Of a stretch of DNA of 64,000 nt, positions 51,821 through 53,607 are shown piece after piece. Every line of letters begins with the position of its first letter. The stretch's first letter is position 1. The notes below the pieces were generated by a model, which worked only from the letters and a program-made list of their open reading frames with translations, was not told where the DNA came from and did no database searches. The position numbers were made by a program, and so were the translations under genes. This DNA comes from a virus (taxonomy: Duplodnaviria > Heunggongvirae > Uroviricota > Caudoviricetes): the IMG/VR virus record IMGVR_UViG_3300018080_004888, positions 1 to 64,000 of that record. One strand, 5' to 3'.

Positions 51821-52090
51821 TGACCCCTGTGGAATTCGAATCCACAACCTTCGGATTAACCTACCAACTACAGCTTTCGCTGCCCTTTCGGTTTGTGGTC
51901 TGGACTTTCTCTTAACCCTCGTCTTTACGTTAGGGTTTCGCCTGTCAAGTCTCTACACCTTCCCTTTCGGGCTTGGCTCGGGATTGCCATCTTACAGGGT
52001 TCCCCGAATTTAGGCGACTCTACTTTTTGGGTTTCCCCAAAAGCACTCCTATTCGAAGTCCGATGCTCTACCAATTGAGCTAAAGGGTCC
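51821..52090 (-). tRNA. tRNA gene interrupted in the anticodon loop by a roughly 196-nt group-I-intron-like insertion (anticodon UUU or GUU depending on the exact junction).
   Basis: Exon 1 (52056-52090) is GGACCCU-UU-AGCUC-AAUUGGUA-GAGC-A-UCGGA-CUU. Exon 2 (51821-51859) is UUAA-UCCGA...GUGGA-UUCGAAU-UCCAC-AGGGGUC-A. The anticodon-stem halves UCGGA/UCCGA pair only across the insert. Confidence 0.4.
51860..52055 (-). mobile_element. Candidate group I intron (copy A).
   Basis: Contains a P7-like pair of elements, GUGUAGAGACUUGAC (R-like) and AAGAGAAAGUCC (S-like; GACUU/AAGUC pair), and a hairpin UUUUGGG-GAAA-CCCAAAA. Paralogous to 52852..53050. Confidence 0.35.
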
Positions 52091-52094
52091 GAAG

Positions 52095-52167
52095 TGAGGT
52101 CGCCGGGCCACGATCCCGAACTGGTAGGGTAAAAGCCTACTGTGCTGCCAAATTACACCACGACCCC
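52095..52167 (-). tRNA. tRNA-Lys(UUU)-like with an atypical T-loop.
   Basis: Acceptor GGGGUCG/CGACCUC (one G-U), anticodon stem GUAGG/CCUAC, anticodon loop CUUUUAC. The T-arm UCGGG-AUCGUGG-CCCGG lacks the UUC. Confidence 0.4.
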
Positions 52168-52209
52168 TTCAAATTTTGGGCCATGCGTTTCAATCGGATA
52201 CGGGGCATT

Positions 52210-52437
52210 TTAATCCTCCAACTCTTTCTTAATCTCTTCCGGCATTGCTGGACAACCTGTATGCCAGCACGTTACCGTAACTCTGTAACCTTCGTCCTTG
52301 GGGAACTTTTCCTTAAACAACCTCACCAACTTGGCGACATGGGATGAACTATAGCTGCGGATACTGCTATCCGTGGCAAACAGCCCGTGTCCCTTGTACG
52401 ATACGTTGATCTCGAAAAATGTTCCCGTTTTCATGTT
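52210..52437 (-). CDS. Small hypothetical protein (about 75 aa; the ORF track extends it upstream to 52671).
   Basis: Region starting MKTGTFFEINVSYKGHG. The upstream part of the ORF overlaps structured non-coding sequence, so the real start is probably internal. Confidence 0.3.
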   Translation of the reverse strand, partial: NMKTGTFFEINVSYKGHGLFATDSSIRSYSSSHVAKLVRLFKEKFPKDEGYRVTVTCWHTGCPAMPEEIKKELED

Positions 52438-52667
52438 TTTGGAGCCCCCATTGGGTCCATCGGGTCGCGAAATGTTTGGGCTAATGACCCTCAATCCACA
52501 ACTCAATTGCTGTCGCAGACCTCCGCCAACCCGACACAGATCTTTTCCCGTAGGGGGCATAGCTGGGCATGGCTTCCGTCGCTTCGGCTTTCGGTTACCA
52601 CAAAGGAACGACCCGCTTAATGGCGGCGTCCAGCCCAGATTATCGTTTCTCCTTATTTTAGTCCAGT

Positions 52668-52708
52668 CCAATAAAAAAACCCTTTTCGCCCTGCGGGCGA
52701 AAAGGGTT
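52668..52708 (-). terminator. Intrinsic terminator (minus strand) downstream of the intron-containing tRNA.
   Basis: AACCCTTTTCGCCC-TGC-GGGCGAAAAGGGTT hairpin followed by TTTTTTATT on the minus strand. The same hairpin family occurs at 37864 and 45435. Confidence 0.5.
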
Positions 52709-52811
52709 TCTTACCACAGGGCATACAACGACATTAACCACATCCTGTTTGAATGTGCTTATGCCAGTTCGTATTACCCTGTTTGGTCATCATTTTCAAG
52801 TTCTCCTAAAG

Positions 52812-53084
52812 TGGCAGGGGCAGGATTCGAACCTACGGCCTCAAGGTTATGCTTACCAACTACGGTTTTCACCGCCCTTACGGTTTGTGGTCTGGACTTT
52901 CTCTTCACCCTCGGCTTTAACCGTTAGGGTGCCTGCCGTCAAGTCTCTACACCTTCCCTTTTACGAGCTTGGCTCGGGATTACCATTTCACAGGCTTCCC
53001 CGAATTTGACAGGTAACCAACTTGGGTTTCCCCAAGTTGTGCCCAAATCGAGCCTTGCGAGCTACCAGACTGCTCCACCCTGCG
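52812..53084 (-). tRNA. tRNA-Met/Ile2-type (CAU anticodon loop CUCAUAA) interrupted after U33 by a roughly 199-nt group-I-intron-like insertion.
   Basis: Exon 1 (53051-53084) is CGCAGGG-UG-GAGC-AGUCUGGUA-GCUC-G-CAAGG-CU. Exon 2 (52812-52851) is CAUAA-CCUUG-AGGCC-GUAGG-UUCGAAU-CCUGC-CCCUGCC-A. The anticodon stem CAAGG/CCUUG forms across the insert. The 1:72 pair is a C-C mismatch. Confidence 0.45.
52852..53050 (-). mobile_element. Candidate group I intron (copy B), paralogous to copy A.
   Basis: Shares the R-like and S-like elements and a covarying hairpin CAACUUGGG-GAAA-CCCAAGUUG with copy A. Ends in ...GUAGUUGGUAAG (a candidate omega G). Confidence 0.35.
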
Positions 53085-53097
53085 TCAATTCTTAGTA

Positions 53098-53607
53098 TTA
53101 TAGACGGTCGGCATCGAAAAATGGTTCACGATTTTCCAGAAAATTTTTGAGGACATTCAATCCCTTCTCTATTTTCTGCCTTACTTCCCAACTTCCCTTT
53201 CCACTCAACTTAACGCGGGCTATACCGTTGGGAAGGATATTCTTCCTATTGCTCCCTCTTCTGAGATAGTTGCTCTTTTCGAAATCATCGATTCCCAAGA
53301 ACGATGCCCAAAAAGTTCTGATTGTAAGATCATCCTGGGGATTGTGGTGTTGAACACGAATCTTGAAGCTATGAAAATCAAAAAACTGCTTTATCCAAGC
53401 AACGAAGGTCTTTAAAATGACGGGATCGGAGTTTGTCATAGAAACTTCACTGTGACTGTACTTTGTTCCTTCCCCCCAGTATAAAGCCAGCCCCAATAAA
53501 TAACCAGGATCACCCAACGGGGGATGATAACTATTTTGTACTTGTTCCCGTCGCTCGATCCAAATTATTTTAAGGGCTTCTCCCCCACTTATTCCACGCC
53601 TTTTCAT
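53098..53607 (-). CDS. Possible single-motif LAGLIDADG-family homing endonuclease.
   Basis: 169 aa, I-CreI-sized. The GYLLGLALYWGEGTK motif resembles LAGLIDADG. It lies immediately upstream of the intron-containing tRNA. Confidence 0.4.
   Translation of the reverse strand: MKRRGISGGEALKIIWIERREQVQNSYHPPLGDPGYLLGLALYWGEGTKYSHSEVSMTNSDPVILKTFVAWIKQFFDFHSFKIRVQHHNPQDDLTIRTFWASFLGIDDFEKSNYLRRGSNRKNILPNGIARVKLSGKGSWEVRQKIEKGLNVLKNFLENREPFFDADRL

Follow-up and report, generated by a model that had tools for sequence, protein, structure and literature searches.

Introduction

Biniszkiewicz et al. reportedly described, in 1994, a group I intron at position 33/34 of the bacterial and cyanobacterial tRNA-fMet(CAU) gene. 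The fMet 33/34 site is listed among bacterial intron sites in PMC13011429, Table S5 of which also holds an IC3 intron at position 34/35 of tRNA-Lys(TTT), found in an actinobacterium; according to the same source, the endonuclease-bearing fMet introns contain an internal PD-(D/E)XK enzyme. In phages, all the group I introns known at the time of a 2014 review resided in protein-coding genes, despite the many tRNAs that phages encode (PMC3984707), and in the searchable literature we have found no report of a group I intron in a phage tRNA gene. Phage introns devoid of an ORF may be mobilised through collaborative homing, in which they associate with a free-standing endonuclease, as in cyanophage psbA/F-CphI and in the T3/phiI DNA polymerase (PMC3984707), and T4 SegB is a free-standing homing endonuclease of the GIY-YIG type located in a phage tRNA gene cluster (PMC13096335).

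We have analysed a viral stretch of 64,000 nucleotides (hereafter, the window), in which a preliminary description had noticed two tRNA anticodon loops carrying group I-like insertions. Judging from its sequence, it is highly probable that in this tRNA array of a large, phage-like genome IC3-type group I ribozymes interrupt a tRNA-Lys(UUU) gene at position 34/35 (copy A) and a tRNA-fMet(CAU) gene at position 33/34 (copy B), the gene of a putative endonuclease, ORF169, being placed beside the latter.

Results

The two split genes are missed by both default ARAGORN and the Rfam tRNA model. Copy B (52812..53084, minus strand) comprises a 5' exon (53084..53051) ending in ...CAAGG-CU and a 3' exon (52851..52812) beginning with CAUAA-CCUUG, and is called directly by the intron-allowing mode of ARAGORN (-i) as tRNA-Met(CAT), i(35,199), with a 199-nt intron; this agrees with the preliminary description, which had placed the 5' junction of this CAU tRNA after U33 and noted a G at the end of the insertion. 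Without the intron the gene reads CGCAGGG...GGCUCAUAACCUUG..., its intron-less phage homologues are annotated as tRNA-Met, and it is the sole CAU tRNA within the window. Initiator features are evident in the C1 x C72 mismatch of the ARAGORN cloverleaf and in the A11:U24 pair of the D stem (GAGC/GCUC). The three consecutive G:C pairs (29-31:39-41) are absent, as CAAGG/CCUUG gives two, beside the loop, and likewise two such pairs adjoin the loop in the tRNA-fMet of the related contig L164; because the third anticodon-stem pair is missing, copy B is here termed initiator-type rather than a proven initiator.

The identity of copy A (51821..52089, minus strand), left open at first, can now be assigned to tRNA-Lys(UUU), with an insertion site (34/35) unlike that of copy B. 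Its 5' exon (52089..52056) ends in ...UCGGA-CUU and its 3' exon (51859..51821) begins with UUAA-UCCGA, and removal of the 196 nt from 52055 to 51860 yields a canonical 74-nt cloverleaf, the best intron-less homologues of which in phage genomes are annotated as tRNA-Lys. In related viral Lys(UUU) genes the intron ends in ...GGUAAG|UUAAUC, and since only the UUU reading leaves a terminal G in these genes, copy A is taken as Lys(UUU). A reading of copy A as Asn(GUU), with the junction CU|...G|GUUAA, was considered and rejected, given that the P1 U.G wobble falls after U34, that the related viral introns keep their terminal G under the Lys reading only, and that the nearest intron-less homologues are tRNA-Lys.

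Both introns are members of the group I family, with exact junctions and a conserved fold. Intron A (51860..52055, minus strand; 196 nt) lies between U34 and U35 and intron B (52852..53050, minus strand; 199 nt) between U33 and C34, and neither has an ORF inside. A search with the Rfam group I intron model RF00028, put forward in the preliminary description as a check, returned copy A at 51879-52066(-) with 67.0 bits (E=8e-15) and copy B at 52871-53069(-) with 65.1 bits (E=3e-14). Both scores are above the gathering score of 50, and both matches span model positions 1-253, i.e. the full model, so that the two anticodon-loop insertions pass the curated threshold for group I introns; they are also the only two matches in the 64-kb window. 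The elements previously named were found in place to within 1 nt, among them two group I-like strings, AGAGACUUGAC and AAGAGAAAGUCC. The hairpin described as covarying is likewise present and corresponds to P2. We describe both introns as IC3-like in view of their likeness to the Azoarcus intron and to the IC3 introns of Table S5 in PMC13011429.

The junctions are defined by short pairings within the introns. The guide GGAGU of intron A (52049..52045) pairs with ACUU|C and the guide GGGC of intron B (53044..53041) pairs with GCU|C, so that in either case the 5' splice site falls at a U.G wobble, and both introns finish in a terminal guanosine (omega-G), A reading ...GGUAGG|UUAA and B ...GGUAAG|CAUAA. 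Helices P1-P9 were verified by hand and by MFE folding, and a consensus structure computed with RNAalifold over 99 non-redundant relatives recovered P3, P4, P5, P6, P8 and P9. The consensus pairs are retained in 93-99 of these 99 sequences and comprise 1-5 standard pair types each, mostly more than one. Between A and B, 19 consensus pairs are identical, 7 are changed on both sides, 2 are changed on one side yet still pair and none is broken, with P2 contributing 2 further compensatory pairs; P7 (GACU/AGUC) is conserved, and was left unscored in the pair counts because it forms a pseudoknot. With seven compensatory and no broken pairs, both introns look functional. Indeed, we regard it as most improbable that they are decaying relics and the split genes tRNA pseudogenes. 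An intron-less tRNA-Lys(UUU) (52094..52167, minus strand; found by ARAGORN, 46.5 bits with the Rfam tRNA model) is located only 4 nt upstream of copy A, which could therefore be dispensable; however, besides the full-length matches above threshold and the compensated pairs, both pairs of exons give perfect cloverleafs, copy B provides the only CAU tRNA of the window, and the arrangement of the ORF and the split tRNA-fMet is kept in L164/L165, a syntenic and distantly related phage contig whose proteins are only 42-61% identical to those of the window.

A different outcome resulted from comparing the two functional-looking introns with each other. In the preliminary description they were paralogous copies that would be a notable case of intron spread; in the sense of spread inside this genome, neither the distances nor the bootstrap trees support this. 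The p-distance of intron A is 0.18 to an intron in a capsid gene (viral contig L027), 0.18 to the fMet intron of L164 and 0.21 to intron B, while that of intron B to bacterial fMet introns, 0.21, equals its distance from A. Since A and B are no closer mutually than to introns of unrelated viral contigs, recent spread within the genome is unsupported, and it seems unlikely that reverse splicing or endonuclease-driven ectopic homing recently carried one copy into the second tRNA gene. Such recent paralogy would account for an identity of 81% over the full length and of 87% from J3/4 on, for a 25-mer common to both introns in J8/7-P7-P9, for the identical P2 tip, UUGGGGAAACCCAA, and for the single clade that joins A, B and L164-fMet in the neighbour-joining point estimate. 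However, this clade has a bootstrap support of 73/200, A and B are sisters in 12 of the 200 trees, the 25-mer is found also in 31 bacterial MAG contigs, and 5 of the 6 pairs of P3 differ between the introns, 4 of them on both sides. A and B were probably acquired or inherited separately, and not recently copied from one another; they belong to one sub-lineage that is widespread in viral contigs, where it occupies both tRNA and capsid genes, and that is found as well in the tRNA-fMet and tRNA-Leu genes of bacteria.

Next to copy B, at 53098..53607 on the minus strand, lies the intact and free-standing ORF169 of 169 aa, as had been described, which stops 13 nt ahead of tRNA-fMet and is preceded by a Shine-Dalgarno sequence (GGAGG, 53616..53612) 4 nt before its ATG. 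About 100 nt after tRNA-fMet there is an intrinsic terminator (52668..52712, minus strand), composed of an 18-bp hairpin and a subsequent U run (RNAfold, -30.2 kcal/mol), which a simple consensus terminator scan did not detect and which was revealed by folding; it probably closes a transcription unit formed by ORF169 and tRNA-fMet. Copy A has no ORF169-type gene beside it. A word-indexed homologue search with ORF169 returned only itself; relatives were gathered by an exhaustive HMMER search, and they make up a family of about 900 cluster representatives that occurs in huge phages and in Patescibacteria-type contigs.

The earlier view of ORF169 as LAGLIDADG-like holds in respect to its motif and to an alignment with I-DmoI, and is not borne out by Pfam models or by comparison with I-CreI. 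The motif LGLALYWGEGTK has the character of a LAGLIDADG-type helix closed by a conserved acidic residue, E46, which together with G47 is invariant in 60 relatives, K49 being near-invariant. The core profile of the family aligns to the second LAGLIDADG motif of I-DmoI, LYVAEGDK (E=1.2e-4), and I-DmoI chains are its only PDB matches; E117 of I-DmoI is catalytic. On the other side, ORF169 has no Pfam match at E<=1, including LAGLIDADG_1/2/3, nor any match in the PHROG or NCBIfam endonuclease models or in the PDB by phmmer, and hhalign against I-CreI was negative. Among the 35 families matched by the 60 relatives, the 25 most frequent are all of HTH type (one a terminase small subunit), with no LAGLIDADG family. 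Structure prediction with AF2 gave a pLDDT of 42 from the single sequence and of 93.9 with 60 homologues; in the latter model, compared with the alpha-beta-beta-alpha-beta-beta-alpha fold of LAGLIDADG enzymes, a helix, and not a hairpin, is predicted between strands 3 and 4, and Foldseek against the PDB and BFVD gave nothing significant. The N-terminal HTH domain of most relatives is missing from ORF169, which may therefore be inactive. Overall, ORF169 would represent a divergent, single-domain and remotely LAGLIDADG-related protein of an uncharacterised family.

Members of this family habitually sit beside tRNA genes. Within the 53 loci with enough flanking sequence, a tRNA starts between -20 and +100 nt of the family stop codon in 31 (background, 4.4%) and an IC3-intron tRNA is found divergently upstream of the family gene in 20; both types of neighbour are present in 9 loci and neither in 11. 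Family genes are sporadically distributed, and they lie directly against a tRNA gene or share 10-15 nt with it. Adjacency to an intron-bearing tRNA is recurrent, as it is observed in the window, with its 13-nt gap, in L164/L165, where a 44%-identical homologue of ORF169 is directly upstream of the split tRNA-fMet, and in the 20 loci just mentioned. Most family members nevertheless adjoin intron-less tRNAs, and the link may therefore be with tRNA genes generally and not with introns. In favour of an association with the introns, though indirectly, over 120 viral loci with the intron-less form of the same fMet anticodon arm have no family member alongside. None of the long (600+ nt) tRNA-fMet introns of bacteria contained or adjoined a homologue of ORF169, and tRNA insertions of about 190 nt downstream of family members (L188, L216, L227 and others) gave no group I match, either at the gathering score or at E<=0.1.

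A sporadic, tRNA-abutting distribution across lineages is what characterises selfish elements with site specificity, and the role that we tentatively hold as the most likely for ORF169 is that of a free-standing homing endonuclease. With lesser confidence, the whole family might be put forward as unrecognised, tRNA-gene-specific free-standing homing endonucleases, built from an HTH and a divergent single LAGLIDADG domain, that would mobilise ORF-less introns in trans in huge phages and Patescibacteria-type bacteria. It is possible, although somewhat doubtful, that these proteins are instead DNA- or RNA-binding factors, for example a maturase assisting the neighbouring intron, or else a regulator of tRNA operon transcription, for which WhiA, a transcription factor derived from LAGLIDADG proteins, offers a model. 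Such non-nuclease roles are at variance with the invariant acidic residue of GEGxK, which aligns with the catalytic LAGLIDADG residue, and with the sporadic occurrence of genes abutting or overlapping tRNAs across huge phages as well as Patescibacteria-type contigs; the compact IC3 introns of the window also share their type with the tRNA-Ile intron of Azoarcus, a model of self-splicing (PMC13168695).

As to the genome in which ORF169 and the introns reside, the two split genes and 17 tRNAs detected by ARAGORN form an array of 19 within 6 kb, all on one strand and interleaved with short ORFs without homologues. The window also encodes a major head protein of the Gp23 type (phrog_138) and has one further match, phrog_18878, and the phage-like setting first suggested for the array is upheld by the 19 tRNAs and the Gp23-type protein. 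The phage identity thus rests mainly on a single major-head-protein match and on the array. That the window is a bacterial chromosome or another element, in which case it would be an ordinary instance of a bacterial tRNA intron, appears quite improbable: the sole structural-protein match, the failure to find the contig in IMG/VR, the genes for glutamate dehydrogenase and saccharopine dehydrogenase and the frequency of ORF169 relatives in Patescibacteria MAGs would fit a bacterial origin, whereas the one-strand tRNA array amid homologue-less ORFs, the phrog_138 and phrog_18878 matches, the lack of any ribosomal or housekeeping gene among the large ORFs tested and the location of the closest IMG/VR relatives of ORF169 on viral contigs of 372-497 kb argue against it. 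Variants of the window phage without the introns or the ORF are not present among the six contigs recovered, which all match the window at 99.98% identity or more, and consequently no presence/absence polymorphism is seen.

Discussion

From the chemistry of the group I family, each intron would fold after transcription into its P1-P9 helices, an external guanosine would attack the phosphate following the U of the P1 U.G wobble, and the released 5' exon would then attack after the terminal G of the intron; the anticodon stem would hold the exons together, their ligation giving the mature tRNA. As a homing endonuclease, ORF169 would cut the tRNA genes of competing genomes that have no intron or ORF, and repair would carry over the linked intron along with the ORF, in what is designated collaborative homing, the intron shielding the tRNA-fMet gene of the phage itself from being cut by ORF169.

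Group I introns in the anticodon loops of bacterial tRNAs were named as known in the preliminary description, and both combinations of tRNA and site are listed for bacteria in PMC13011429. The case is consequently less exceptional than was then proposed, considering also that IMG/VR contigs frequently contain tRNAs with introns. At variance with the 2014 review, viral tRNA-gene introns comprise those of this window, those of two huge-phage genomes in GenBank and, in a sample of 123 IMG/VR hits, about 80, and on these sequences compact self-splicing introns appear to be common in phage tRNA genes and overlooked by standard tRNA annotation. As such annotation passes over split tRNAs, phage tRNA repertoires are under-counted, including Lys(UUU) and the initiator. 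Very small natural ribozymes (196-199 nt) become in this way open to study, and the placement of the ORF169 family against tRNA genes, often intron-bearing, makes trans-acting homing directly testable. If the proposal is true, a family of trans-acting endonucleases would explain the spread of tRNA introns 'lack[ing] homing endonuclease genes', and phage tRNA arrays would be an arena of competition between introns and endonucleases among co-infecting phages.

Comparison with known systems places the two introns close to described ribozymes. The Azoarcus pre-tRNA-Ile intron has the core motifs AAAUUCGG, CCGAGCCAAGC and GAAGGUGUAGAGACU.GACGG in common with them, and all are compact, of about 200 nt, and without peripheral extensions. 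The Azoarcus intron is inserted at a different site, 36/37 of tRNA-Ile(CAU), and its P2, P5, P6, P8 and P9 differ in detail. Copy B coincides with the bacterial fMet(CAU) intron in tRNA type, in the U33|C34 site and in class (IC, here IC3-like), with a 25-nt core stretch in common, and differs in its phage-like host genome, its minimal size of 199 nt and its having no internal ORF; unlike in the endonuclease-bearing fMet introns, the candidate enzyme is outside the gene and LAGLIDADG-related. The 735-kb phage record LR756501 contains a tRNA-Leu(UAA) intron that has in common with copy A the site 34/35, the 5' exon end GGACUU and the guide GAGUGC; what sets copy A apart from known 34/35 introns is its tRNA-Lys host, in a phage array and beside an intron-less Lys(UUU).

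The putative enzyme has its own counterparts. In respect to collaborative homing systems, the adjacency arrangement is the same, and is kept also in the relative L164, whereas the target would be a tRNA and not a protein gene and the enzyme would be of another family. SegB and ORF169 are both endonuclease-type genes in phage tRNA arrays, with tRNAs as conserved landmarks, SegB being of the GIY-YIG type and associated with no intron, and ORF169 LAGLIDADG-related. Finally, in comparison with I-DmoI and I-CreI, ORF169 has no Pfam LAGLIDADG match and its beta3-alpha-beta4 connection is altered, and its family is distinguished by the HTH present in most relatives and by genes that are free-standing and tRNA-adjacent.

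Detection and anatomy of the two split tRNA genes

A search of the 64-kb window with the Rfam group I intron model (RF00028, gathering score 50) yields two matches, both on the minus strand, full-length and above the gathering score, at 51879-52066 (67.0 bits) and 52871-53069 (65.1 bits), and no further one. These scores bear out the two group-I-like insertions in tRNA anticodon loops proposed in the preliminary description; re-reading of the sequence also confirms the coordinates and insert lengths given there, along with the stem halves, the P7-like strings and the covarying hairpin. 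Default ARAGORN lists 17 tRNAs in the window and the Rfam tRNA model 13, all on the minus strand, and both split genes are missed by the two programs. With introns allowed, ARAGORN reports the gene termed copy B (53084..52812, minus strand) as tRNA-Met(CAT) with a 199-nt intron (5' exon 53084..53051, intron 53050..52852, 3' exon 52851..52812). Copy A (52089..51821, minus strand; 5' exon 52089..52056, 196-nt intron 52055..51860, 3' exon 51859..51821) is recognised as a tRNA only once the insert is removed by hand. Three sub-threshold tRNA-model matches of 21-24 bits within the array (47242-47292, 47891-47949 and 48156-48203, minus strand) may be degenerate or unusual tRNAs.

Identity of the interrupted tRNAs

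Splicing of copy B would rebuild the loop CU|CAUAA, the Met-type loop described earlier. Its cloverleaf has a C1xC72 mismatch together with A11:U24, and a mismatch of this type and A11:U24 are hallmarks of bacterial initiator tRNAs; only two G:C pairs, one short of the usual three, stand at the base of the anticodon stem, and intron-less homologues in phages are annotated as tRNA-Met. Copy B is here called an initiator-type tRNA-fMet with its intron at 33/34.

Copy A admits two readings, Asn(GUU) and Lys(UUU). Its P1 contains a U.G wobble after U34 (ACUU|C paired with GGAGU), a pairing homologous to that of copy B (GCU|C with GGGC), and in related viral genes, with the sequence ...GGACUU|C..AAUAGGAG......GGUAAG|UUAAUC, the intron ends in a G under the Lys reading alone. 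Moreover, the best full-length intron-less phage homologues of copy A are annotated as tRNA-Lys, and a 735-kb phage record (LR756501) has a tRNA-Leu(UAA) intron at 34/35 whose 5' exon end, GGACUU, and guide, GAGUGC, are both those of copy A. Taken together, these features identify copy A as tRNA-Lys(UUU) with an intron at 34/35; the wobble after U34, the terminal G and the homologues all speak against Asn(GUU), which we have rejected. A second, intron-less tRNA-Lys(UUU) gene lies 4 nt upstream of copy A (52094-52167, minus strand), with a low tRNA-model score (46.5 bits) and an atypical T-loop, AUCGUGG, without UUCGA; the two neighbouring Lys genes differ from each other.

Integrity of the ribozyme fold

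Checked by hand, helices P1-P9 pair in both copies, and from 99 non-redundant relatives RNAalifold recovers P3, P4, P5, P6, P8 and P9, whose pairs hold in 93-99 of these sequences. When the two copies are compared over 28 consensus pairs, 19 are identical, seven carry double-sided changes that still pair, two are altered on one side to give a wobble and none is broken. Four of the seven compensatory pairs fall in P3 (UCGCCU/AGGCGA versus CCUGUC/GGCAGG), and P2 provides two further ones. Such a pattern, read from the alignment, is the signature of a fold under selection in each of the two copies, and compensatory change with no broken pair argues against pseudogenes. Both inserts, each in an identified tRNA, are group I introns; their junctions are canonical and their fold is conserved. 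By the known chemistry of the family, a GTP-initiated two-step transesterification would release mature tRNA-Lys and tRNA-fMet.

Relation between the two introns

Over their full length introns A and B share 81% identity, which rises to 87% from J3/4 onward. A core 19-mer is present in at least 120 IMG/VR contigs, and a 25-mer common to both occurs in 31 bacterial MAG contigs of many phyla. In a 99-sequence intron alignment the p-distance of copy A is 0.18 to the fMet intron of L164 (a related phage contig), 0.18 to the capsid-gene intron of L027 and 0.21 to copy B, while several bacterial fMet introns lie at about 0.21 from copy B. Among 200 bootstrap trees, A and L164 group in 127, A, B and L164 in 73, and A and B in 12. 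The intron spread first suggested, taken as a recent copying event inside this genome, is not supported by these values, A being nearer to L164 and L027 than to B; the two introns belong to one widespread sub-lineage.

Occurrence in phages and bacteria

With introns allowed, ARAGORN places a tRNA split by an intron at about 80 of the 123 IMG/VR core matches, mostly Leu(UAA), the others being Arg(UCU/CCG), Lys(UUU), Phe(GAA) and Thr; for Lys genes in this set, a part of the anticodon calls is wrong. The remaining inspected matches are mostly in major-capsid genes of podovirus-like contigs, such as Pelagibacter phage HTVC120P (MH598807.1, ~1470-1655) and uvDeep1-GF2-KM23-C739 (KT997847.1), in which one split capsid gene has two such introns (1448-1628 and 2157-2337; RF00028 78 and 77 bits); further loci are L027, L124, L014, L078 and L120. 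These capsid-gene introns of marine podovirus-like phages are close relatives of the tRNA-type (IC3-like) introns (core identity 83-86%), and GenBank annotates the split genes as two separate 'capsid protein' CDSs. In two unannotated GenBank huge-phage genomes, group I introns split tRNA-Leu(UAA) at 34/35 (LR756501.1, 735 kb, locus L001 1455-1745; LR756511.1, 595 kb, locus L004 868-1654); one is 205 nt long, the other 700 nt with an HNH-type ORF inside (...CPNCHAKT...).

In bacteria, a 2026 survey gives fMet 33/34 as a common intron site and lists Lys(TTT) 34/35 as IC3 (PMC13011429). Introns A and B are further members of an established class, and their sites are known as well. We found no report of phage tRNA group I introns in the searchable literature, including that after a 2014 review (PMC3984707), which places every phage group I intron then known in protein-coding genes, and no mention of introns in the huge-phage paper; the phage tRNA setting appears unreported though plentiful in sequence data. 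A textbook-level statement on phage introns thus needs correction; in kind, the finding is unsurprising.

The adjacent ORF169 and its surroundings

ORF169, a 169-aa ORF (53607..53098, minus strand), has a GGAGG ribosome-binding site and stops 13 nt before tRNA-fMet, 3' of which lies a strong terminator (~52712..52668; 18-bp stem, -30 kcal/mol, U run). Since the ORF adjoins the tRNA and the terminator comes after the latter, the two probably form one transcription unit. An exhaustive HMMER scan recovers 939 relatives, several from Patescibacteria or Parcubacteria MAGs and, where named by their source, hypothetical or HTH proteins. Most are about 215 aa long with an additional N-terminal HTH_23-type domain that ORF169 lacks, an absence which may mean reduced or lost activity. 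In the family motif LGLxLYWGEGxK, residues E46 and G47 never vary across 60 relatives, and G39, Y43 and K49 hardly do. The proposal of a LAGLIDADG-like ORF stands in part: a core-only profile has I-DmoI as its sole PDB match (nine sequence variants, best E=1.2e-4), the motif aligning with the second LAGLIDADG motif of that enzyme, LYVAEGDK, but all direct searches of protein families are negative, as is Foldseek with the AF2 model, itself confident (60 homologues, pLDDT 93.9). ORF169 is judged to be remotely LAGLIDADG-related, with an atypical topology and putative activity.

A 19-codon ORF (MMTKQGNTNWHKHIQTGCG; 52741-52800, minus strand) with an AGGAG ribosome-binding site follows the 3' end of tRNA-fMet, ahead of the terminator. 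Some 230 nt without a convincing ORF (52440-52670, minus strand), with no Rfam match at E<=1, separate the terminator from the next gene, which starts near 52434 and is phrog_18878-like; at the same place L164 likewise has some 350 nt of non-coding sequence, which contains hairpins. Elsewhere in the window, a Gp23-type major head protein homologue (Pfam E=6e-15, phrog_138) and an adjacent 341-aa ORF (4524-5666 and 5632-6657, minus strand) both match a twin-arginine (TAT) signal, N-terminal in the former, which is odd for capsid proteins. Genes of metabolic or cellular type also occur in this phage-like context, namely glutamate dehydrogenase (29120-30376, plus strand; E=6e-61), a saccharopine-dehydrogenase-like protein (10244-11341, minus strand) and an SPFH/Band-7 protein (27556-28542, minus strand).

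Association of the family with tRNA genes

A homologue 44% identical to ORF169 (P0005, loci L164/L165) sits immediately upstream of a tRNA-fMet gene that is likewise split by an intron (site 33/34, RF00028 71 bits). As L164 is a distant, collinear relative of the window phage (42-61% protein identity by tblastx) with the same arrangement, the pairing has outlasted a long divergence. We surveyed 82 further loci, 74 of them unique and 70 informative. An intron-less tRNA on the same strand starts -20 to +100 nt from the ORF stop codon in 32 of the 70, against a positional background of 4.4%, and in 11 of these 32 the ORF overlaps it by 10-15 nt; the abutting tRNAs are Met(CAU) (14), Gly(UCC) (5), Ile(UAU) (5), Thr (4) and others. 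In 24/70 the opposite strand carries, no more than 900 nt upstream, a tRNA, usually Met(CAU), that is interrupted by an IC3 intron; the eight of these loci that were scanned with Rfam were all confirmed. One or both features are found in 42 of the 53 loci whose flanks are long enough on either side. In 120 viral loci where this fMet anticodon arm is present without an intron, no family member lies beside it, nor does one lie beside any bacterial fMet-intron locus examined.

At ten metagenome loci a tRNA called Arg(GCG) or Thr(GGU) by ARAGORN has a conserved ~170-195-nt anticodon-loop insertion; it lies directly downstream of the family gene in nine (L188 1618-1885, L216 881-1144, L227 2999-3264, L229 2955-3223, L234 1587-1844, L238 2235-2498, L243 2917-3170, L247 815-1073, L236 1346-1605) and upstream in L232 (36-282). 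The insert shows a J8/7-P7 string of group I appearance (AAGAUACAGUCUAG) and has no RF00028 match even at E<=0.1; it may represent a divergent intron class missed by the Rfam model.

Proposed role and comparison with known systems

The family is uncharacterised, with a striking genomic habit. Some abutting tRNAs lie on the strand opposite to the family gene (L163 776-1297 with tRNA-Glu c[1259,1331]; L171/L172, tRNA-Glu on the minus strand 37 nt after the ORF), which ties the family to the tRNA gene as DNA and not to co-transcription. A maturase or a regulator are the alternatives; as the most likely role we cautiously favour that of free-standing, tRNA-gene-directed homing endonucleases. Trans-mobilisation of tRNA introns thereby becomes a directly testable hypothesis, in which a free-standing endonuclease and the ORF-less intron next to it would act together in 'collaborative homing'. 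Pairs of this kind have been described in cyanophage psbA and in T3-like DNA polymerase genes (PMC3984707), with T4 SegB as precedent for an endonuclease within a phage tRNA cluster (PMC13096335).
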